Below are positions 45,961 to 64,000 of a stretch of DNA of 64,000 bases, in pieces. Position 1 is the first letter of the stretch. Every line of letters begins with the position of its first letter. The notes beneath the pieces are model-generated. The model had not been told where the DNA came from. It searched no databases and saw only the letters and a program-made list of their open reading frames with translations. The DNA lies in the IMG/VR virus record IMGVR_UViG_3300005253_000015, positions 1 through 64,000 of that record, one strand, 5' to 3'. Both the position numbers and the translations under genes were made by a program. Source of the stretch: a virus.

Positions 45961-46479
45961 ATGGCTAAACTCTACCATTCAAAAGATTATCTAATTAATG
46001 AATATATAAACAATAATAAAGAGATACAAGAGATAGCAAGAGAGAATGGTGTTTGTGATAGTACAATCAGTCGTAGAATGGATAAATTAAAAATTCCGAA
46101 GAGAGGACAGAAAAGAGAGAATCATCCTATGTGGAAGGGTGGTAAATATACAGATATGTATGGTTATGTAAAAATAAAGAATTATAATCATCCAAATGTT
46201 GATAGTGGAAATTATATAGGAGAGCATACTTTAATTATGGAAAAATCAATTGGTAGATATCTAAAACATTATGGAAGAAATAATAAAAATAATGAATTAG
46301 TACATCATATAAATGGTATAAAAAATGATAATAGAATCGAAAATCTTTTTTTATGTAATAATATGTCTCATCATAAAAATATTCATTATAATTTAGAAAA
46401 AGTAGCTTTAAAGTTATATATGGAAGGTAAAATAAAATTTAAGGAAGGAGATTATAAAATTGGTAAAATTGGACTATAA
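45961..46479 (+). CDS. HNH homing endonuclease
   Basis: HP.WKGG...YIGEHTLIME...VHHINGIKNDNRIENL. Confidence 0.85.
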   Translation: MAKLYHSKDYLINEYINNNKEIQEIARENGVCDSTISRRMDKLKIPKRGQKRENHPMWKGGKYTDMYGYVKIKNYNHPNVDSGNYIGEHTLIMEKSIGRYLKHYGRNNKNNELVHHINGIKNDNRIENLFLCNNMSHHKNIHYNLEKVALKLYMEGKIKFKEGDYKIGKIGL

Positions 46480-50405: not shown

Positions 50406-53400
50406 ATGGCTGGTAAAGGTTCAAAACAACTTGTTCGGGAACTCATTAATTTCTATAAGGTAAATAGAGGTGGATATCCATACGAGATTATTTATAAATT
50501 AATCCAACTCTATCAAGTAATAGAAGATGTATACTCCGTCTCCACTGTGATAGAACTCCAAGAAGCTATTGATAATATAGGAACTGATGCTGGTACTATT
50601 TTTATAGCTTCTGGAACTTATGATGTCACTACAACAATAGATATTGATAATTGTGGTTCACTTGTTATATATGGGCATGGAGACAATACAATTCTTAAAG
50701 CCGCTGATGGTATTACGATATTTAATATAACATGTGTTGCTTCTTGTCTAATAAAGACATTAAAATTGGATATTACTAACTATACGGGAGATACTCAAGC
50801 CGTTTTAATTAATGAAACTAATAATAATATTGTTGGTTTTGAAGATGTATCTATTCTTGGAGCAGCGGCAAATGGTATAGGCATTGAAGTTCAATCCGAT
50901 AACTGTTATATTGACCAATGTAATATACTACAAATGAAAACGGGCATTTATTTGAATGGAGCTGAGAAAACAAAAATAACTGGAACTCTCTCTGGTCTTC
51001 ATGTTAATTACGGGCTTCATTTAAATCAAGCAGATTTTAGTATTATTACTGGAAATTCTTTTACTGCTAATACTTCTTATGGTATATATATTTATAATAG
51101 TGATTATTGTATTATTTCCAATACTGGATGTACGAGTAATCTTACTGGAATGTATTCGGATATTTCAAATTATAATACAATATCATCATGTTTATCTAAT
51201 AGTAATTCGGAAAATGGTATATTTATAACTCAAGGCAATTATAATACAATATCAAGTAATACATTAAACAACAATGACTCTAATATAGCTGGTAATACTG
51301 CTGGATTATATATCACTAATAACTCTGATTTTAATACTATAACTGCTAACTCTATTAATAATAACAATAATTCTGGTGCTGGTACTGCTTACGGTATCTA
51401 TATTGCTACAGCTGATTGTGATGAGAATGTAGTTGCCTCTAATAATGCTAACGGGAATGATGTAGATTATCAAGACTCTGGAACATCCACAACTGTAATA
51501 TATTATGTTCAAAATAGTGATGAGCTTCAAGACGCAATAGACTCTATTGGTTCTAGTGCTGGGACAATATACATTAATTCTAGCTTTACTGTATCAACTA
51601 CTATTGATATTGATGGTGGTGGAAGCTATCTTATCGAAGGCGAAGGTAGTAATACAGTTTTAACTACTGGTATTGATATAAAATGTTTGAATGTAGACCT
51701 AGCTCGTCAATGTATATTACGGAACTTCAGAATTGACGCTAGTGCGTATACTGCTGCTGGTGTGGCACTGGAAATAATAGATGTTAATGAGAATAATAAT
51801 GATTTAGTTATATTAGATAATGTATCTATTACTGGAGATGGTACTAATGGATACGGAATTGAATTAAATTCTAACAATTGTAGGATTGAAAATTGTGAGA
51901 TAGATAATATAAGTATCGGTATTAATATTTTATCAACTAATAATATAATCTCTGGTAATAATGTTAATAACTGTAATACATATGGGATTCAAATAAGCTC
52001 AGCTAATACTAACAATGTAACAACAAACATCGTAGATAGCAACACAACTGGTATATATTTATCATCATCTGATTATGTTTTAGTAAGTGGGAATTCAGTA
52101 AACACTAATACTGAAAACGGTATAGAGCTCACTGGTAGTGATTATACTAATATTAGTGGGAATTCATGTATAGGGAATGATTCAAGTACAGCAAATCCTC
52201 AAGCTGGAATGTATATAAGCACAGACTCTAACAATAATAGTATTATTGGAAACACTATTATCAATAATAATAATGCTGGTGCTGGAATTGGATACGGAGT
52301 ATATATAGGAACAGCTACTTGTGATGAGAATATAGTTCGCTCTAATAATATTTCTGGAAATGATACACAGTGGGGTGATACTGGTACTAATACTCAAATA
52401 GAATATTTCTGTCTAACTGAGGGTCATATACAAGATGCTGTAGATTCTATAGCTGGTAAGGCTGGTACGATAATTATTGGAGAGGTTACCATTGCTATTA
52501 CAACTGGCATAACTGTAGATAATGCTACCGCAAAGATACGCATTATTGGGAAAGGACAACCATCTATATTACAACCAACTATTGGTATCACAGTATTTAC
52601 ATTTACAAATGCTTATGAGCTTCATTTAGAAGCCTTTTATATAGATATGGATAATTATACAGCAGATACTACAAAAGCAATATTCAATAATGGTGCTAAT
52701 TGTTTAAGACAAACTTACGAAGATATAACATTCGAGGGAACAGCTGATGGGATTGCGATATATAATTCTGGTGATTCTATTACTGTTAATAATTGTTATT
52801 TTAACAATGTATTTAATTGTATATACATTACGGGTTCTGTTGTAGCTTTTAAAATCACTGGTAACGAATTCTGGACTATTAGAGATAGTTCTGTTTATAT
52901 TGATTATGGTGAACAAGGTGTTATTGCCAATAATATAGCTGATGCTACTGGTGGTAAACCCGTTATAGATGTAATTCGAGGTAAATATATATCTATATCA
53001 AATAATCAAATCATTACGGGTGGAAGTACAGCTACTAATGGTTCATCAATACAAATAACTGGTGCTGTTGCCAGTAGTGATATTCAGATAGTAGGTAATA
53101 CCATCAGAAGTACAAATTCAAGTGGCACTACTAATAGTATGGTATACATGAGTGGTACTGTTTCTCGAATAACAATATCTTCTAATGTAATCATTTCCTA
53201 TACTAATAGTGATGATTCTTGGGGTATAATAATAGAGGATGCTACAGTTATAGATTGTACTATCACTGGGAATAGTATTTATGCTTTCGGGGGTATTAAA
53301 GTAGTAAATGCTGATAATATGGTTATCTCTGGGAACAAAATTACTGGTAATACTTCTTTAAAACAATCTGGTATATTATTAGAAGGGTCAATTGGAAATG

Positions 53401-53867
53401 CAATAACATCAAATATTATTGATGGAGTATCTGTTAACTTTGGTACGGATGTCAATGGGATATCATTAACTTCCGTATCGACTGATAATATTATTGCGAA
53501 CAATCGAATACTTGATATGGCTAATGCGGGAGCTGGAGATGGTTATGGAATAATTATAGCTGCGGGATGTAATAATAATGTTATATCTGGAAATGTAATT
53601 ACGAGTTGTGATACTAACTTGTCTGATGCGGGGACTGGAACTATATTATTTGGCGATGATACTGCCTACGGAGCTGGTTGGAACGGGGACTTAGGCACTC
53701 CGACCAAGAATGTTATATATGACCAATTTGTAGCTACTTTAGCTGCTGCTGTTGCTTTAATATCTGATACTGCTTATGCGGCAAGTTGGGATGGAGTCAC
53801 TACAATTGCTCCGAGTAAGAATGCTGTATATGATAAAATACAAGCTCTTATTGCTGTATGGGGTTAA
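50406..53867 (+). CDS. large spike/adhesin with three tandem parallel beta-helix (NosD/CASH-like) modules
   Basis: Repeated (L/I)Q.A.D.I...AGTI module starts and GIY....N.I..N repeats; ends in AYAASWDGVTTIAPSKNAVYDKIQALIAVWG. Confidence 0.8.
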   Translation: MAGKGSKQLVRELINFYKVNRGGYPYEIIYKLIQLYQVIEDVYSVSTVIELQEAIDNIGTDAGTIFIASGTYDVTTTIDIDNCGSLVIYGHGDNTILKAADGITIFNITCVASCLIKTLKLDITNYTGDTQAVLINETNNNIVGFEDVSILGAAANGIGIEVQSDNCYIDQCNILQMKTGIYLNGAEKTKITGTLSGLHVNYGLHLNQADFSIITGNSFTANTSYGIYIYNSDYCIISNTGCTSNLTGMYSDISNYNTISSCLSNSNSENGIFITQGNYNTISSNTLNNNDSNIAGNTAGLYITNNSDFNTITANSINNNNNSGAGTAYGIYIATADCDENVVASNNANGNDVDYQDSGTSTTVIYYVQNSDELQDAIDSIGSSAGTIYINSSFTVSTTIDIDGGGSYLIEGEGSNTVLTTGIDIKCLNVDLARQCILRNFRIDASAYTAAGVALEIIDVNENNNDLVILDNVSITGDGTNGYGIELNSNNCRIENCEIDNISIGINILSTNNIISGNNVNNCNTYGIQISSANTNNVTTNIVDSNTTGIYLSSSDYVLVSGNSVNTNTENGIELTGSDYTNISGNSCIGNDSSTANPQAGMYISTDSNNNSIIGNTIINNNNAGAGIGYGVYIGTATCDENIVRSNNISGNDTQWGDTGTNTQIEYFCLTEGHIQDAVDSIAGKAGTIIIGEVTIAITTGITVDNATAKIRIIGKGQPSILQPTIGITVFTFTNAYELHLEAFYIDMDNYTADTTKAIFNNGANCLRQTYEDITFEGTADGIAIYNSGDSITVNNCYFNNVFNCIYITGSVVAFKITGNEFWTIRDSSVYIDYGEQGVIANNIADATGGKPVIDVIRGKYISISNNQIITGGSTATNGSSIQITGAVASSDIQIVGNTIRSTNSSGTTNSMVYMSGTVSRITISSNVIISYTNSDDSWGIIIEDATVIDCTITGNSIYAFGGIKVVNADNMVISGNKITGNTSLKQSGILLEGSIGNAITSNIIDGVSVNFGTDVNGISLTSVSTDNIIANNRILDMANAGAGDGYGIIIAAGCNNNVISGNVITSCDTNLSDAGTGTILFGDDTAYGAGWNGDLGTPTKNVIYDQFVATLAAAVALISDTAYAASWDGVTTIAPSKNAVYDKIQALIAVWG

Positions 53868-53918
53868 GAGTTATATTTATTAATTTAATATCTATTTTAT
53901 AATATATAAAACTAGGTT
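53829..53918 (+). repeat. 90-bp inverted repeat, left copy (partner 61463-61552)
   Basis: One mismatch over 90 bp, covering the spike 3' end and the intergenic region; more diverged similarity extends back to about 53768. Confidence 0.85.
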
Positions 53919-53924
53919 GAAAAT

Positions 53925-54845
53925 ATGAAGAAAATAGAGTTTAAAAGACAGTTTTTTATAAAAGATTTATTCATACCTGAAAGAGTTATTAATTGTTTTA
54001 ATTGTATTGAATTTGAATCTTATCAAATATTTAGTTATTGTATTGAGAATGATTTGTTTATAATCCCAGAGAATGGGTTTATATTTATACCAATAAAGAG
54101 TATATCTGATTATAAAAGTATGGTTAAGATATTTAACGAAACTAATATATGTAATAATAGCTATTTATATTTAATAATAGAAGAACAATCCCTTCTTGAT
54201 GCGGTACTTTCCACTATTGTAGATAAAAGGTTTAGTATTTTAATCACTAAAGATTTAAAAATAGATTTTGTTAAGTACTGGAATAATACAATTGGAAAAG
54301 AATGGATTTCTAAAAACAGAATCATTAAAAAGATAAAAATAGACTATCCTAATTATGATAGACAAATTAATGAAATGATTAGTATATTCAATGAGGAATT
54401 TATAAGATTTTTCTTATTAGATTTTGATTATGTATCATTTGAAAAGATAAAAATAGAAGAGATACACAAACTAAAATTCTGGATACGTAATTTTATTGGC
54501 TGGACAAAATTAAAAGATGTTGATTCAATAGAAATCATATCAACTCCATTTGTTAGAAAGATTTTTGTTTCTGATGAGTTGGTCTTATATATGGATAATA
54601 AGAAAAAAGACATATGGTCATTTGATTTAATGTTATATTTAAAAGACGATGGAGAAAGTATGCCAATGAGAGAGCTCAATCTTCTTAGGAAATATATTGA
54701 CTTTGTACCAAATGCTATGTACACAGAATCTAAAATAACAAATTGGTTTTTAATGGATTATGCTCAATGTAAAGAAATTCAGGGAAGTTTAAATGAAATA
54801 CCATTAATGATGGGATTAATAAATAGGTGGTTATATGATTTTTAA
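53925..54845 (+). CDS. hypothetical protein, possible accessory/inactive radical-SAM partner
   Basis: Overlaps the rSAM gene; no CxxxCxxC motif. Confidence 0.4.
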   Translation: MKKIEFKRQFFIKDLFIPERVINCFNCIEFESYQIFSYCIENDLFIIPENGFIFIPIKSISDYKSMVKIFNETNICNNSYLYLIIEEQSLLDAVLSTIVDKRFSILITKDLKIDFVKYWNNTIGKEWISKNRIIKKIKIDYPNYDRQINEMISIFNEEFIRFFLLDFDYVSFEKIKIEEIHKLKFWIRNFIGWTKLKDVDSIEIISTPFVRKIFVSDELVLYMDNKKKDIWSFDLMLYLKDDGESMPMRELNLLRKYIDFVPNAMYTESKITNWFLMDYAQCKEIQGSLNEIPLMMGLINRWLYDF

Positions 54846-56010
54846 TGTTGTGTGTCCAGATATTTTGATTTCAACAAATTGTAATATGAGATGTAAGTAT
54901 TGTTTTGAGAAGGATAAAATTAACGAGGTTATGGATGAAGAAAGAATATTAGAATATTATTCACATAATCCCTGTACAGGAACATTTCCTATTGGTGGTG
55001 AACCTTTTCTAAATTTAGATTTACTCTTCAAAATAATGGATACAGTAGAAAATAATAAAATTATACAAGAGAAAAGAAAAAAAACGTTATTACAGAATTT
55101 AAAATGTGTTATTACTAATGGAACTTTAATTAAACAAAACATACAGAAGATTAAGGATTATGGATTAATATTACAGATAAGTTTCGATGGTTCTAAAAAA
55201 GTTCATGATACTTATAGGGTTTTTCCTAATGGAAAGGGAACGTATGATAAAATCATTGAAGGATTAGAACTTTGCGTAAAAGAAGGAATTGAATGGTCTA
55301 TTCATGGTGTTGTAGCTAAAGATACTATTAAATATTTCTATGATACGTTTGTATGGTTTTTTGAGATATATAAAAAATACAAAGAATTAGATATAGCAAT
55401 AGATTTTATGAAGAATAACGTATTTCAAGTAATATTCGAACAAGATTATTCTGATAAAGATGTTGATGAACTAGTCAGACAGTTTCATAAAATTGCTGAA
55501 TGGATTTATTCAAGAGATTATATGACTATTAAACAAAAAGACCAATTATTTCATAACTTCTTAGAAAGACGTGGTGGTGTTTGTTCAGCTGGAACAACAT
55601 TAATAGCTTTTGATAATAATTTAGATATGTTTCCATGTCATAGACTTGCTGTTGTACCAGAGAAAGAAAATTATTACCTAGGAAATGCTATGGATATTAA
55701 GACTATTAAAAATTTCAAACAATATAACTCTTACTATAATATTGGGAGAGGTTATAAATACATGTATTCAGCTATACAACATAACCACGATTACAAAGAC
55801 AAGGAGAGTTTGAGATGGTTTATGTGGTGTCCTGCTACAAATTTACAAACATCTGAAAATGTTTATTATCAGAATGCTAAATATAATGTGATGTTTGTTG
55901 AAGTAAATAGAATGGTTAGAGCACTTAAGAAAATATATTATCAAAATAGTGATTTAATAAAAGAAAAGGATAATGCCAATAAGCTCAGGAAGCCCGATAC
56001 TAGCAAGTGA
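54835..56010 (+). CDS. radical SAM protein with SPASM/Twitch-type C terminus (peptide/protein maturase-like)
   Basis: CNMRCKYC, GGEP, TNG, ISFDG...HD..R, CSAG...PCH, WCPATN. Confidence 0.9.
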   Translation: MIFNVVCPDILISTNCNMRCKYCFEKDKINEVMDEERILEYYSHNPCTGTFPIGGEPFLNLDLLFKIMDTVENNKIIQEKRKKTLLQNLKCVITNGTLIKQNIQKIKDYGLILQISFDGSKKVHDTYRVFPNGKGTYDKIIEGLELCVKEGIEWSIHGVVAKDTIKYFYDTFVWFFEIYKKYKELDIAIDFMKNNVFQVIFEQDYSDKDVDELVRQFHKIAEWIYSRDYMTIKQKDQLFHNFLERRGGVCSAGTTLIAFDNNLDMFPCHRLAVVPEKENYYLGNAMDIKTIKNFKQYNSYYNIGRGYKYMYSAIQHNHDYKDKESLRWFMWCPATNLQTSENVYYQNAKYNVMFVEVNRMVRALKKIYYQNSDLIKEKDNANKLRKPDTSK

Positions 56011-56749
56011 TGTAAATGCTATTATCGCTAAGATAAATTCAGAGGAAAATAATAGAACTGGGTTAGGTCTGTCTGATTTACCAGATATGATTGTTAGTAA
56101 TCCTTGTTTGGCTTCAGACCACGATTCTTGGAGAACTCGTAATGATGCTATTAATGCTTTTCATTGTTATTGTGAAGCAGATGGAGGGCGTGATGCTGGT
56201 GATACTACTAAGACAGGTACAACATTAGGTCTAACTGCTCCTAATGTTACTTCTGGTAATTCAATGTTAGCTTCTCAACTTACAACTTTAGAAACAGATA
56301 TAGATAATTTAGTAGCTCAATGTGATTGTGATACTTATGTTTGTAGTTGTGTAGGTAATTGTACTACTGTTTGTACTTGTAATACAAATGTATGTACTTG
56401 TGTAGGTAATTGTACTAGTGTCTGTTCTTGTAATACTAATGTTTGTACTTGTGTTTCCCAATGTGGTTGTAATACTAATGTATGTACTTGTGTAAGTCAA
56501 GGGTGTGCCTGTAATACTATTAGAACACCTGAATGTCTTGATTGGACATTCATATGTGGTTGCCAAAGTCAGGGGTGTAGTTGTAATCAATTATGTACTT
56601 GCGTAAATCAAGGCTGTGGTTGTAATCAATTGTGTACATGTGTAAGCAATGTGATTGCACAGTGTACTTGTAATCAATTGTGTACATGTGTAAGTAATGT
56701 GATTGCACAGTGTACTTGTAATAAAGTCTGTGGGTGTGAATATAACTAA
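55973..56749 (+). CDS. Cys-rich CxC-repeat protein, candidate rSAM substrate
   Basis: About 40 Cys in tandem CxCN.xCTCV units; 48-bp DNA tandem repeat at 56621-56716. Confidence 0.7.
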   Translation: MPISSGSPILASDVNAIIAKINSEENNRTGLGLSDLPDMIVSNPCLASDHDSWRTRNDAINAFHCYCEADGGRDAGDTTKTGTTLGLTAPNVTSGNSMLASQLTTLETDIDNLVAQCDCDTYVCSCVGNCTTVCTCNTNVCTCVGNCTSVCSCNTNVCTCVSQCGCNTNVCTCVSQGCACNTIRTPECLDWTFICGCQSQGCSCNQLCTCVNQGCGCNQLCTCVSNVIAQCTCNQLCTCVSNVIAQCTCNKVCGCEYN

Positions 56750-57165
56750 TGGTAGATAAAGAAACTTATTGGAAGAAAGTTAATTTTATAGTAGATACTT
56801 CCATCTTTATTAGAAACGGAGCTTGTAATCGTTGTGGTAAATGTTGTTATGCGTATGATGAAGAACATCCCCCAGAAGAGGGAATAAAAGTTCCATGTAC
56901 TAAATTAAGTTATGATGGTGCTTTAGCAATATGTGGAATTCAAGAAAATAAATATCAAATCTGTAAAGATAATCCGATTTATCCTACACCATGTATGGTT
57001 TCAGAAGCTGTTGATACTTGTGGATATTCTTGGGTAGTTGATAATAGTTTAACAAAAACAAAAGCATTGGATAAGTTTAATATTATATGTGATGTTTGTC
57101 ATAGAAAAGAACCATGTACTTATTACGATAAAATAGTTAATGAAATAAATGAGGTGTGTAAATAA
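56749..57165 (+). CDS. YkgJ-like CxxCxxCC Cys-cluster protein
   Basis: GACNRCGKCC...C..L......C.I......IC...P. Confidence 0.7.
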   Translation: MVDKETYWKKVNFIVDTSIFIRNGACNRCGKCCYAYDEEHPPEEGIKVPCTKLSYDGALAICGIQENKYQICKDNPIYPTPCMVSEAVDTCGYSWVVDNSLTKTKALDKFNIICDVCHRKEPCTYYDKIVNEINEVCK

Positions 57166-57728
57166 TAATTCTAAAAAATGCGTCTATAATAACTTTTAAC
57201 GATTCTACTGTTGAAGTAGAGGATACTGATATTATGGTGAATTCTGATATTCATATGTATTATTATCATATAAGACCCCCTAATTTTGACTTTACATCTA
57301 AGTCTATACATTTTATAGTTAAGTTTATGAAGAATATTATGGATTTTATACATGGTATTGAATCAGGTTATAGGCTTTGTTGTATTATATCATACCTACG
57401 AGGAAAGGCTAAGTTCATAAGACCAACACACCAGTATTTTTGTTATAAATGCCAAGACAAAATTAAAAAAGGTATTTATAGACATCGTAAGAGACTACTT
57501 AAAATTAGAAAAGAATGGAAAGGTCTAGGTAACTAGTACTTTTTTGTACTACATGCTTATATGTCTATAAAACAATAGTTATTTAATTCTCTAATATCAC
57601 AAAATCGGAGAGAAGAGTGTAGAAATGCCCTTTTTTTTGAAGTTATGTGTATTTAGAGACTAATCTAAATAAAAATTCAATAAAAAAACAACTATTAAAA
57701 ATTAAATATAAAATTAGAGGAATACAAA

Positions 57729-61455: not shown

Positions 61456-61462
61456 TATTTTT

Positions 61463-61552
61463 AACCTAGTTTTATATATTATAAAATAGATATTAAATTA
61501 ATAAATATAACTATTAACCCCATACAGCAATAAGAGCTTGTATTTTATCATA
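61463..61552 (-). repeat. 90-bp inverted repeat, right copy
   Basis: Reverse complement of 53829-53918 with one mismatch. Confidence 0.85.
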
Positions 61553-64000
61553 AACAGCATTCTTACTGGGAGCGATTGTAGTCACCCCATTCCAAGAGGC
61601 AGCATAAGCAGTATTAGAAGGAGCAGTATGTAGAGCAGTAACTTGTGCTGCTGTTAAGTGTTGTTCATTAACATTTCCATTGGGAAGTGTAATACTATCG
61701 TGTGTTAAATCTCCCCCTACAGTAGCAGCATGGTCTCTTGCCGCAATATCAACTCCGTCTACAGTTCCACTAACAGTTATATTACCAGTTATATCTAGAC
61801 TTGCTACTCCAGCACCACTATTATTAATCGAAAAAACAGTAGCACCAGCATTCACCATGTCTATAGATATACTCCCAGTAGTTGCAAAAGCAAAAGCTCC
61901 ACCATTGCTATTAATACCATCAAATTGTAATGTATCTCCATCATGAACATGAGCTACGGGGGCTGGTTGTGCTTGAAAGCTTGGGGCTGCTGCGACACCA
62001 TTCCCAATCAGTATTGTTGCTGCTGCTCCAGTCGCTATTTCAGTCATAACACCAGCTCCATTAGTACAATATACCTTCCAATTATTAACTGCTGTAGGCA
62101 TATTTGTGATACTAAGAGCAGATACATCAACGCCATCAACAGTCTCAGCTCCAGCCATCGTAATATTAACGCCATTCATTTGTAGACCACCTGTTATTAC
62201 TAAGGCATTAGCTTCTATATAAGCATGTGCCTCTGCGTCAGTATATTTTTGACCAAAAGCCATAGCATCTTGAGCCGCAGAACCATTACCAAGACCAGTT
62301 ATTTTAGAAGTTCCCATAACGATTGGAATACCCATTGTTAATTCAGTGGCAGTCATAGTCATTTTAGCAGAATTATTAATTCTAAAAACAACACTTTGAC
62401 CAGTAGCAGCATTCAATAAAGTAAGTCCAGTAGCATTTTGTGCTAAAGCATAATTAGTTCCAGATAACATATCTCTATGACTAAAAACCATCCAATCAGC
62501 AGTCGTACTTCCTAATGCTGCTCTTCCAAAAGTAAAGGTTAAATCCTCATCGGCAGAAGTAATAACTTGAGTGCCGTGAAGGGTCATACCAGCCGAGTTG
62601 ATTAGCGGAGTGTAATTATCCCCGACAGTATAATTAGGGTCTTCCTTCTCTCCATAAGCATCTAAATAAAAATAATCAGTAGAATCTCCAAAACATTTAA
62701 TATGTATTCTATTTACACCAGAAACCATATTATCATCAGTAGAGACATTATTGGCTTCTAATACATCATTTACATATATATCTTGAGTGTTATCTGCTCT
62801 CCATACTAACTGAACATGATATAAAATATTATTTGAAACAACAATAAGAGCAACCCACGCAGCTCCGTTATAATAATCCATACTACTTGCTGTTATACGG
62901 AGGCGATTTATATAACCGACGCCTCCTTCAAAAGTATAAAACTCCCAATATTTTGTTACATCATTAGTTCCAATCCAGAATTCATGAGTTCCACTTGTAG
63001 CCTGAGTTATGCTATGATATATGGTTGGATCTTCTCCTCCAGTAGCATCATCTTGTAATCGTAATACTTTTTTATGACCTTGCCATTCATCAACAATAAT
63101 ACATTCTCCATCATAGAGAGTTGCTGCATCTATAAATGGTATATCTGTACCTTCCGTACCTACAGGCACATCCTTAAAATTATATGTAGCCCAGAATATT
63201 CCAGCTTCAATCCCACCTTTTATATTTCCTATGCTCTTTATATCGTTTCCATCCATAACAATATTGCCACTCATCTGTCCGCCAGTAAGGGGTAGCATTA
63301 AGTCTGCATATTCCTTTACTGTAGTATTTGTAGGAACTTTTACATCACTGTTAGCTAATGCGGCAATATCGCCCAACGTAGTTATAGTAGCCCCAGTACC
63401 TATTTTTATACTTGATTTAACGGTTAATATTCCACCTGTGGTAAGACTCATAGCACCATCATTTTGGGCATCATCAGAATCTCTCCAAACAAATCCTCTA
63501 TCAGCATCAGGGTTCATAGTAAAGGTCATAGCCCAGTCATTAAGTCCTCCATAGGTCATAGCACTATGCATACCAATAGTATAAACACTCAAATTATATA
63601 CTCTAAGTTTGTCGTAATCTGATTCGGCTCGAGTTGATATTCTATTAACATTGTTGATATCATAAAAACCCATATCAATATCACCATTCATAGTATCCCC
63701 AACAAGTTTAAGATAAACATCTGCTGCCGCTATTGCTGCAACAGCTTCAGCATCTGTATAGACTGCATGAAGTGCAGCCACTTGAGCAGCAGAAATATGT
63801 TCATAGACAGTACCAGCATTTATATTAGCTAAGTCATTATGATTTAAATCTCCTGCTACTGTCGCAGTATGATGTGCAGTAGCAACCCCTGTATGAGTGG
63901 ATATTAAAGCATCTATTGCAATATCAATAGTACCAGCGGGATTAGTATTTTGCACAACAATTCTTGCATCTACTTCTGCATCAGTGTATTTAGCATGATG
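61514..64000 (-). CDS. long fibre/spike protein (5'-truncated by the window edge)
   Basis: The frame stays open to the window end; YTDAEA, G.M.G.I.M and TVDGVD fibre repeats; same C-terminal peptide as 50406..53867. Confidence 0.75.
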   Translation of the reverse strand, partial: HHAKYTDAEVDARIVVQNTNPAGTIDIAIDALISTHTGVATAHHTATVAGDLNHNDLANINAGTVYEHISAAQVAALHAVYTDAEAVAAIAAADVYLKLVGDTMNGDIDMGFYDINNVNRISTRAESDYDKLRVYNLSVYTIGMHSAMTYGGLNDWAMTFTMNPDADRGFVWRDSDDAQNDGAMSLTTGGILTVKSSIKIGTGATITTLGDIAALANSDVKVPTNTTVKEYADLMLPLTGGQMSGNIVMDGNDIKSIGNIKGGIEAGIFWATYNFKDVPVGTEGTDIPFIDAATLYDGECIIVDEWQGHKKVLRLQDDATGGEDPTIYHSITQATSGTHEFWIGTNDVTKYWEFYTFEGGVGYINRLRITASSMDYYNGAAWVALIVVSNNILYHVQLVWRADNTQDIYVNDVLEANNVSTDDNMVSGVNRIHIKCFGDSTDYFYLDAYGEKEDPNYTVGDNYTPLINSAGMTLHGTQVITSADEDLTFTFGRAALGSTTADWMVFSHRDMLSGTNYALAQNATGLTLLNAATGQSVVFRINNSAKMTMTATELTMGIPIVMGTSKITGLGNGSAAQDAMAFGQKYTDAEAHAYIEANALVITGGLQMNGVNITMAGAETVDGVDVSALSITNMPTAVNNWKVYCTNGAGVMTEIATGAAATILIGNGVAAAPSFQAQPAPVAHVHDGDTLQFDGINSNGGAFAFATTGSISIDMVNAGATVFSINNSGAGVASLDITGNITVSGTVDGVDIAARDHAATVGGDLTHDSITLPNGNVNEQHLTAAQVTALHTAPSNTAYAASWNGVTTIAPSKNAVYDKIQALIAVWG

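Follow-up and report, generated by a model that had tools for sequence, protein, structure and literature searches.

In this report we describe a cassette of four overlapping open reading frames (ORFs) located in a 64,000-nucleotide stretch of viral DNA, hereafter called the window, which covers positions 1 to 64,000 of a virus record (IMG/VR IMGVR_UViG_3300005253_000015) that is complete at 111,456 bp, has direct terminal repeats, comes from a marine-sediment metagenome and has a GC content of about 30%. The cassette occupies positions 53925-57165 of the plus strand and encodes, in this order, a 306-aa protein read here as a pseudo-radical-SAM (S-adenosylmethionine) partner (53925-54845), a 391-aa radical SAM enzyme (54835-56010), a 258-aa cysteine-repeat protein regarded as the target of that enzyme (55973-56749) and a 138-aa accessory protein with a CxxCxxCC motif (56749-57165). 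Successive frames overlap by 11, 38 and 1 nt, which suggests that the four genes are translationally coupled. A preliminary description, made from the sequence alone, had already pointed to four overlapping genes at this place, to a radical SAM enzyme with a reduced SPASM-type cysteine set, to a CxC-repeat protein of about 40 cysteines with N-terminal LAS repeats and still expanding C-terminal units, and to the CxxCxxCC protein; all of these were borne out by the analysis presented below.

The 391-aa protein is a member of the radical SAM superfamily (PF04055, 55.2 bits against a cut-off of 29.5, E 1.2e-14) and carries a GGEP motif. In the alignment of 13 homologues the CX3CX2C motif at C16/C20/C23 is invariant, and so are just three further cysteines, C250, C268 (within PCHR) and C332 (within WCP). 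The SPASM domain was defined by the seven-Cys motif CX9-15GX4C ... CX2CX5CX3C ... C, holding two auxiliary clusters (AuxI and AuxII); the enzyme lacks this full set, and its CX2CX5CX3C block is absent from the alignment. Because only C250, C268 and C332 are conserved and this block is missing, the C-terminal part fits a Twitch-like arrangement with one AuxI-like three-Cys site and no AuxII. The enzyme is also devoid of an N-terminal RRE, the recognition element known from RiPPs (peptides made on the ribosome and modified after translation). Its best NCBIfam match is the ranthipeptide maturase family PapB (NF047865; 4e-32, 111.7 bits against a cut-off of 340), followed by TIGR04115, the CXXX-repeat maturase (3.5e-22, 79.4 bits against 350), and then by other Cys-peptide maturases, QhpD and anSME, all of them far under their cut-offs; the CrpC-type family TIGR04463 scored 49.6 bits against 525, and phrog_1802 was matched at 1.6e-22. 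Among solved relatives found by profile search CteB was the best (2.3e-29) and anSME the second (6e-22), with TigE also present, and the C250...C268 stretch aligns on the first two SPASM-motif cysteines of CteB (the C..G....PCH segment), the three auxiliary cysteines corresponding to the AuxI part of that motif.

The 258-aa protein contains 42 cysteines (16.3%), 90% of which fall in CxC, and 18 of its 19 CxC units lie within residues 117-255. It is the sole ORF of the entire 111-kb genome that reaches 10 Cys per 40 residues, so its cysteine density is far beyond chance. Two parts can be distinguished, namely an N-terminal helical domain of residues 1-116 (55973..56320, plus strand), modelled by AlphaFold2 (AF2) as three strand-helix units with a predicted confidence (pLDDT) of about 80-90, and the Cys-repeat region of residues 117-258 (56321..56746, plus strand). 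The LAS repeats are SPILAS, NPCLAS and NSMLAS, that is an (I/M/C)LAS motif standing each time ahead of a predicted helix (H11-27, H47-63 and H100-113), and the N-domain holds in addition a conserved HCYCEADG motif. A profile search with this domain brought up no more than 87 cluster representatives out of 1.84 billion, a Cys-rich tail following in nearly every case, and we consider it probably a recognition and/or docking domain. Its ESM Atlas neighbours comprise clusters with Peptidase_S74, Ig, Flg_new and PF27846, to be taken as leads only. Fold searches with the model of the target gave nothing significant in the Protein Data Bank (PDB; best E 4.4) and only weak rows of uncharacterised viral proteins in BFVD (E 0.05-0.2).

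Spacer analysis divides the 18 CxC units of the repeat region into two runs of nine, split by a unique 14-residue loop, NTIRTPECLDWTFI (nt 56513-56554), with spacers of 4,7,4,7,4,3,4,4 residues before the loop and 4,3,4,3,7,3,7,3 after it. The residue following CxC is D/N/Q/E in 11/18 units and V in 7/18, in near alternation, and across the family it is E/D/N/Q in 409 of about 460 units; cysteine is the sole residue conserved throughout the repeats. The protein ends with CxCNxVCxCEY, a family-wide terminal motif (family form CxC[ND]xVCxCE[YF]) that is invariant in alignments. Tandem Repeats Finder reported two repeats: in the first arm a 51-bp (17-aa) unit present 2.5 times with 87% identity (56326..56454, plus strand), and in the second a 48-bp (16-aa) unit present 2.1 times with 98% identity (56620..56722, plus strand). 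Both of these young duplications sit at the outer ends of the two CxC runs, and the 48-bp repeat can be read as a recent expansion. Arm counts are 9|9 here and 6|6, 9|9, 15|15 and 15|16 in relatives, with many other relatives being asymmetric. In a test of this symmetry 11 of 39 representatives were within +/-1 (shuffle P 0.003), a result that is suggestive only, as related sequences were partly retained; equal arms may be a hint of a hairpin. AF2 leaves the Cys region unfolded (pLDDT ~30) while the N-domain is modelled confidently, which is as expected if folding needs modification.

The first protein of the cassette had been called unknown in the preliminary description, and this holds as far as sequence families are concerned, no match to Pfam, PHROG or NCBIfam being found for it; what had been overlooked is its fold. 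The AF2 model (pLDDT 83, pTM 0.84) retrieved anSME and CteB with Foldseek at probability 1.00, and in VIA it gave Z 13.9 to CteB (5why; 256 aa aligned, covering CteB 91-441), 13.3 to TigE and 9.8-10.5 to ChlB, PqqE and anSME, generic TIM barrels reaching at most 7.2. No cysteine is invariant among its 8 homologues. We read the 306-aa protein as a cluster-less pseudo-radical-SAM protein with a predicted radical SAM/SPASM-like fold, and its role is probably that of a substrate-holding or scaffold subunit.

The last protein of the cassette has the motif CNRCGKCC, and its family shares eight invariant cysteines (C26, C29, C32, C33, C50, C62, C72 and C91), including those of CxxCGxCC. PF03692 is matched by 5/7 family members (best E 1.7e-4) and not by the window copy at E up to 10; the 138-aa protein is taken as a divergent relative of this YkgJ-type putative Zn/Fe-chelating domain. 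The gene was found in the window and in loci L001 (twice), L006, L007, L009, L012 and L020, and is absent from L004, L005, L014, L015, L022 and all loci of the CXXX type (described further on), a distribution that marks it as optional. The idea of a split maturase, with the CxxCxxCC protein supplying the missing SPASM cluster, was also considered and is unlikely as a general mechanism, the gene being missing from about half of the loci. Just 3' of the cassette, at 57234-57536, there is a 100-aa Cys- and Lys-rich ORF whose homologue in L020 (E 3.7e-51) likewise comes after the CxxCxxCC gene; for that protein DUF2197 was matched only at E 0.047.

The pairing of enzyme and target was followed from both sides. 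In the target-side survey viral, metagenome and genome collections were searched and the loci were screened by phmmer, leaving 16 distinct loci in which the DNA was long enough (the window, L001, L004-L008, L011, L013-L015, L017-L019, L022 and L031). A radical SAM gene adjoins the target in 16/16 of them, and the pseudo-radical-SAM gene is present in 13, the other three being cut off or unclear. Two gene orders occur: pseudo-radical-SAM, radical SAM, target (then CxxCxxCC), and radical SAM, target, second radical SAM, pseudo-radical-SAM (L005, L031 and probably L018). The second enzyme is a distinct one (L005:7664-8683, L018:2101-3054, L031:7399-8214), with weak viperin-like or W-cofactor maturase-like NCBIfam matches. 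Targets vary from 159 to 1120 aa, having the N-domain and the terminal motif in common; the longest one (L007:2441-5803) contains 320 Cys (28.6%) and 154 CxC, mostly in CTCDDV/CTCETV/CSCESD hexads, and is followed by a CxxCxxCC gene. Beyond the cassette, no other part of the phage is conserved in related loci at E 1e-5.

The enzyme-side survey covered 80 viral loci with radical SAM homologues of 21-37% identity, in which a Cys-repeat ORF was defined as one on the same strand, no farther than 4 kb away, in which 40 aa contain 10 Cys or more. Such an ORF stands beside the radical SAM homologue in 74/80 loci, with C-x-x-x-C spacing in 67, CxC in 5 and CxxC in 2, and 11 of these ORFs have at least 400 aa. 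Homologous enzymes do therefore have Cys-rich neighbours, and the dedicated enzyme-substrate cassette put forward in the preliminary description gains from both counts. As a separate observation, in SPN3US-like jumbo phages (H16-H30, H37-H61) the matching radical SAM protein appears in the annotation as a pair of neighbouring genes, 'radical SAM superfamily protein 1' and '2'.

The surroundings of the cassette suggest, by gene position only, a link to the tail. In eight loci of the CxC subfamily it lies directly 3' of a gene for F4, a fibre family with a shared C-terminal ...YNAVYNDYAD...WVKVL domain, and an F4 gene directly precedes the module in 15/81 loci of the radical SAM side (L030-L110, mostly of the CXXX type), where some F4 proteins range from 950 to more than 1250 aa. 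Downstream genes in the order F9-F7-F6-F8-F11 are common to five loci, and these conserved genes look like baseplate genes. Sequence matches in the PDB were non-significant both for F7 (All3318, a baseplate chain of a contractile injection system, E 0.15) and for F4 (phi29 preneck appendage, E 0.24), and when some 25 further genes of the phage and the F4 family were scanned against PHROG and Pfam, hardly any structural annotation resulted. In relatives, then, the cassette is placed between a tail-fibre family and baseplate-looking genes, which agrees with the virion-module setting noted earlier for the window. There it sits between two convergent fibre/spike genes, one for a 1153-aa beta-helix spike/fibre protein directly upstream (50406..53867, plus strand; NosD 6.9e-37, Beta_helix 2e-34) and a fibre-like one about 4.3 kb downstream (61514..64000, minus strand), whose product has 964 aa in the whole genome, the gene reaching 64408 beyond the window. 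Both proteins have their last ~30 residues in common (...APSKNAVYDKIQALIAVWG).

The repeat search also revealed an inverted repeat of 163 nt, 92% complementary, with arms at 53763-53925 and 61456-61618, each consisting of the last ~105 nt of the convergent fibre/spike gene and ~58 nt past it. The arms flank a 7.5-kb segment whose start is the cassette, and contigs from four sediment runs end at them; inversion between the arms is not shown by these data, a single opposite-strand joint (53729/61922) having been found at a depth of 2.5. Upstream of the fibre region there is an HNH endonuclease gene (45961-46479; phrog_7545, 1.1e-19). Promoter and terminator scans at the locus performed no better than shuffles.

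Taken as a whole, we give about even chances to the locus being a module for protein maturation, complete in itself and belonging to tailed phages of anoxic sediments. Since radical SAM enzyme and target are adjacent in all 16 loci and a Cys-repeat neighbour accompanies 74 of the 80 homologues, the enzyme very probably modifies the Cys-repeat protein. Thioether formation is the somewhat likelier kind of modification, because the nearest characterised relatives, PapB and CteB, form Cys thioethers: PapB (acting on PapA, the freyrasin precursor) and CteB (acting on CteA, a SCIFF peptide) link the sulfur of Cys to carbon, either in a side chain or in the backbone. That the product is a tail-associated part of the virion, as the gene position suggests, might equally well be true or false.

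The course of events may be pictured as follows. The folded N-terminal helical domain of the target would be recognised by protein-protein contact, as neither enzyme has an RRE, and the cluster-less pseudo-radical-SAM protein would probably make this contact, serving as a holder or scaffold for the true enzyme. The latter would cleave SAM at its CX3CX2C cluster, and its single three-Cys auxiliary cluster would provide an open iron site able to bind a substrate Cys; in CteB, AuxI is reportedly bound by three Cys ligands, with an open position for the substrate cysteine. The Cys sulfur would then be joined to a carbon of a nearby residue, the likely acceptor being the Asp/Asn/Gln/Glu after CxC, and the resulting C-x-x-[D/N/Q/E] would be as in the substrates of PapB, QhpD and CrpC; the prevalence of E/D/N/Q at this position in the family argues for a C-X-X-[Q/D] substrate motif like that of CrpA. 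Proceeding unit by unit along the CxC repeats, the enzyme would leave a rigid, redox-insensitive and protease-resistant rod or hairpin, out of the cell at lysis and most likely belonging to the tail-fibre apparatus as an accessory component. For the PF03692-like protein the role would be that of a dispensable helper for Fe/Zn, such as an electron donor. A bolder version, which we put forward tentatively and hold to be rather improbable in full, is a two-armed hairpin tail appendage with thioether-stapled CxC rungs and remaining thiols possibly holding metal, its length (159-1120 aa) being set by matched repeat expansions in both arms. Such an appendage would be made by a minimal two-cluster radical SAM enzyme with its dead paralogue and would serve as a redox-proof disulfide substitute in sulfidic anoxic sediment.

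Several observations weigh against the maturation of a tail part by thioether formation. The F4 domain and fibre are absent from the window phage, Pfam and PHROG gave no structural-family match among the cassette neighbours except for the beta-helix protein, and what supports the virion location is gene position alone; cargo genes ('morons') also adjoin fibre genes. Neither a fused fibre-plus-CxC protein nor a longer target homologue of that kind was found in the CxC subfamily, which is weak evidence. On the side of the enzymes, hhalign detected no signal between the 306-aa and the 391-aa protein, whose relation is by predicted fold only, and the radical SAM scores are far below the PapB, TIGR04115 and TIGR04463 cut-offs. 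Given these scores and the lack of both AuxII and RRE, the chemistry could differ from thioether formation. In the target the 7/18 units with Val carry no acid or amide after CxC, and with two Cys and at most one acceptor per unit half of the thiols must end up otherwise, on a metal, in a disulfide or free.

The same pair and the same chemistry could instead yield a cargo product outside the virion, either set free at lysis or active within the infected cell; it might bind metal or sulfide, for instance, or be directed at competitors, with the N-domain being only a long leader-like recognition domain. We regard this as possible, though unlikely. Phages with unrelated flanks exchange the cassette as one block, its segment is bracketed here by the 163-nt inverted repeat, and the window phage is without the F4 fibre found beside most relatives; to this come the missing fused form and the archaeal analogue CrpA, which is cellular and a suspected metal binder (PMC13692751). 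Bacterial loci from metagenome-assembled genomes (MAGs; L023-L025) also combine, in the manner of ordinary RiPPs, enzymes with full RRE/SPASM and small precursors made of a leader and (CxCxxV)n. A cargo product fits less well with the place right after a fibre gene, kept across two very divergent subfamilies, or with the overlapping, probably coupled frames on the strand of that fibre gene; moreover, the cassette holds no protease, exporter or immunity gene, and a 1120-aa 'core' is unlike any RiPP.

Less probable still is that the radical SAM enzyme acts on the Cys-repeat protein without making thioethers, the thiols mainly binding metals or Fe-S clusters. Oxidation of Cys to formylglycine or dehydroalanine (anSME-like), C-C or C-O cross-links, epimerisation and methylation would be the options. 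Consistent with it are the rank of anSME as second-best solved relative (6e-22) together with TIGR03942 at 1e-15, the failure of the enzyme to reach the cut-off of any thioether family, its lack of AuxII, the accompanying putative Zn/Fe-chelating protein and the conserved HCYCEADG, which resembles a metal site. The best matches (PapB, CteB, TIGR04115), however, are all associated with targets rich in Cys, and those of them that have been characterised form thioethers; Cys is the sole residue conserved throughout the repeats, and the acid or amide conserved behind CxC agrees with the acceptors known for thioethers (PMC13692751). The preliminary description had proposed that the system cross-links or metallates a virion appendage, and for metallation by the enzyme we see no support, since no radical SAM relative is known to insert metals. 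Finally, that the two genes are coincidental neighbours, the Cys-repeat protein being a fibre stabilised by disulfides or metal without any enzyme and the radical SAM protein having some other target (the spike next to it, a cofactor, nucleic acid), is very improbable in view of the co-occurrence (16/16 and 74/80), the overlapping frames and the position of the enzyme in the peptide-modifying branch.

If the maturation of a tail part by the radical SAM enzyme is true, tailed phages would use the 'antibiotic-peptide' chemistry of radical SAM enzymes to finish a structural protein, which is a possible answer to the question of how extracellular proteins are made rigid where disulfides cannot survive. 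The family offers protein-scale substrates, with up to 320 Cys per chain, for a putative thioether-forming enzyme, and a natural enzyme minus the second auxiliary cluster, plus a cluster-less paralogue, which bears on the debated roles of SPASM clusters and on RRE-free substrate recognition. The survey also shows that the catalogued CXXX-repeat family is just one branch within a broader module of phages. In the literature searched there is no description of a phage module of radical SAM enzyme and Cys-repeat tail protein, nor of such a virion maturation step.

In comparison with RiPP systems in the strict sense the short precursor, leader protease and export are missing here: the target has 258 aa with a folded N-domain of 116 aa, and no signal peptide, protease, exporter/transporter or immunity gene is present in the cassette. 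This, together with targets of up to 1120 aa, sustains the earlier view of a protein product rather than a secreted peptide. PapB and CteB act on short secreted peptides recognised by leader and RRE, and possess AuxII, whereas the window enzyme has neither RRE nor AuxII. The pseudo-radical-SAM partners known from RiPP clusters (TIGR04150 pseudo_rSAM_GG, TIGR04347 pseudo-SAM/SPASM) resemble the present case in that a dead protein of radical SAM fold stands beside a true maturase; there is no sequence match of the 306-aa protein to either, the likeness being one of concept and fold only. Separately, L023:2409-4183 and L024:5546-7372 encode full-length PapB-like enzymes with RRE and SPASM adjoining proteins of 138-150 aa, which have a leader-like start and (CxCxxV)n and end with ...VPVH/...HPVH, and in L025:555-1913 there is an enzyme of this type too, just downstream of which the Cys region is matched by tblastn. 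These MAGs belong to Oscillospiraceae, Clostridiales and Lachnospiraceae; their enzymes and precursors pass no NCBIfam cut-off, and the L023/L024 pairs may be the RiPP equivalent, in bacteria, of the CxC repeat found in the phages.

The CXXX-repeat system (target TIGR04114, maturase TIGR04115, associated protein TIGR04116; PF27846, Pfam 38.1) is catalogued, with no biochemistry found, and its viral clusters are labelled 'modification target Cys-rich repeat domain' (PF27846) in the ESM Atlas; 67 of the 80 viral loci of the enzyme-side survey belong to it. The gut phage MT835573 (L030) is an example, having an F4-type fibre gene, a 193-aa C-x-x-x target (TIGR04114, 21.3 bits against a cut-off of 20), two small proteins and a full-SPASM radical SAM enzyme (TIGR04115, 300.6 bits against 350). 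Both systems are phage-borne, have an adjacent PapB-like radical SAM enzyme, come directly after the F4 tail-fibre family and begin their targets with G..I...D...L...IN.E..RR before the Cys repeats, the N-domains showing weak similarity (hhalign E 2.7e-4). They differ in the period, which is CxC-xxx(x) hexads/heptads here and C-x-x-x there; in the auxiliary cysteines of the enzyme, three here and seven there (79 bits to TIGR04115); and in the partner, a 306-aa pseudo-radical-SAM protein here and a ~90-aa TIGR04116-type protein there. The partner of the window cassette does not match TIGR04116, and TIGR04114 is matched neither by the target or 17 relatives at E up to 10 nor elsewhere in the genome; the pseudo-radical-SAM and PF03692 proteins are restricted to the CxC subfamily and do not occur in CXXX loci. 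By these shared features the cassette is placed as a CxC-hexad sister of the CXXX-repeat system, a relationship that, like the pseudo-radical-SAM fold and the dispensable CxxCxxCC gene, had been missed before.

The closest biochemical precedent for the cassette is CrpC/CrpA. CrpC, a TIGR04463 radical SAM/SPASM enzyme of Methanococcus voltae, puts ranthionine links on the 28.8-kDa Cys-repeat protein CrpA, as established by mass spectrometry (Dieter et al. 2026, PMC13692751). CrpA, a cellular archaeal protein suspected to bind metal, has a repeat of 17 residues that carries C-X-X-Q/D motifs, as well as a recognition region at its N terminus, and structure prediction of its repeat is poor (PMC13692751). 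Of the two auxiliary clusters of CrpC, AuxI, with three predicted Cys ligands, is required and AuxII is not strictly needed (PMC13692751). CrpC differs by its RRE, its full seven-Cys SPASM domain with three clusters in all, its cellular and archaeal setting and the lack of a pseudo-radical-SAM partner. What both systems share is a radical SAM enzyme whose substrate, presumed in the phage case, is a whole Cys-repeat protein and not a peptide, and the C-x-x-[D/N/Q/E] motif, at which the phage enzyme would perform a comparable modification.

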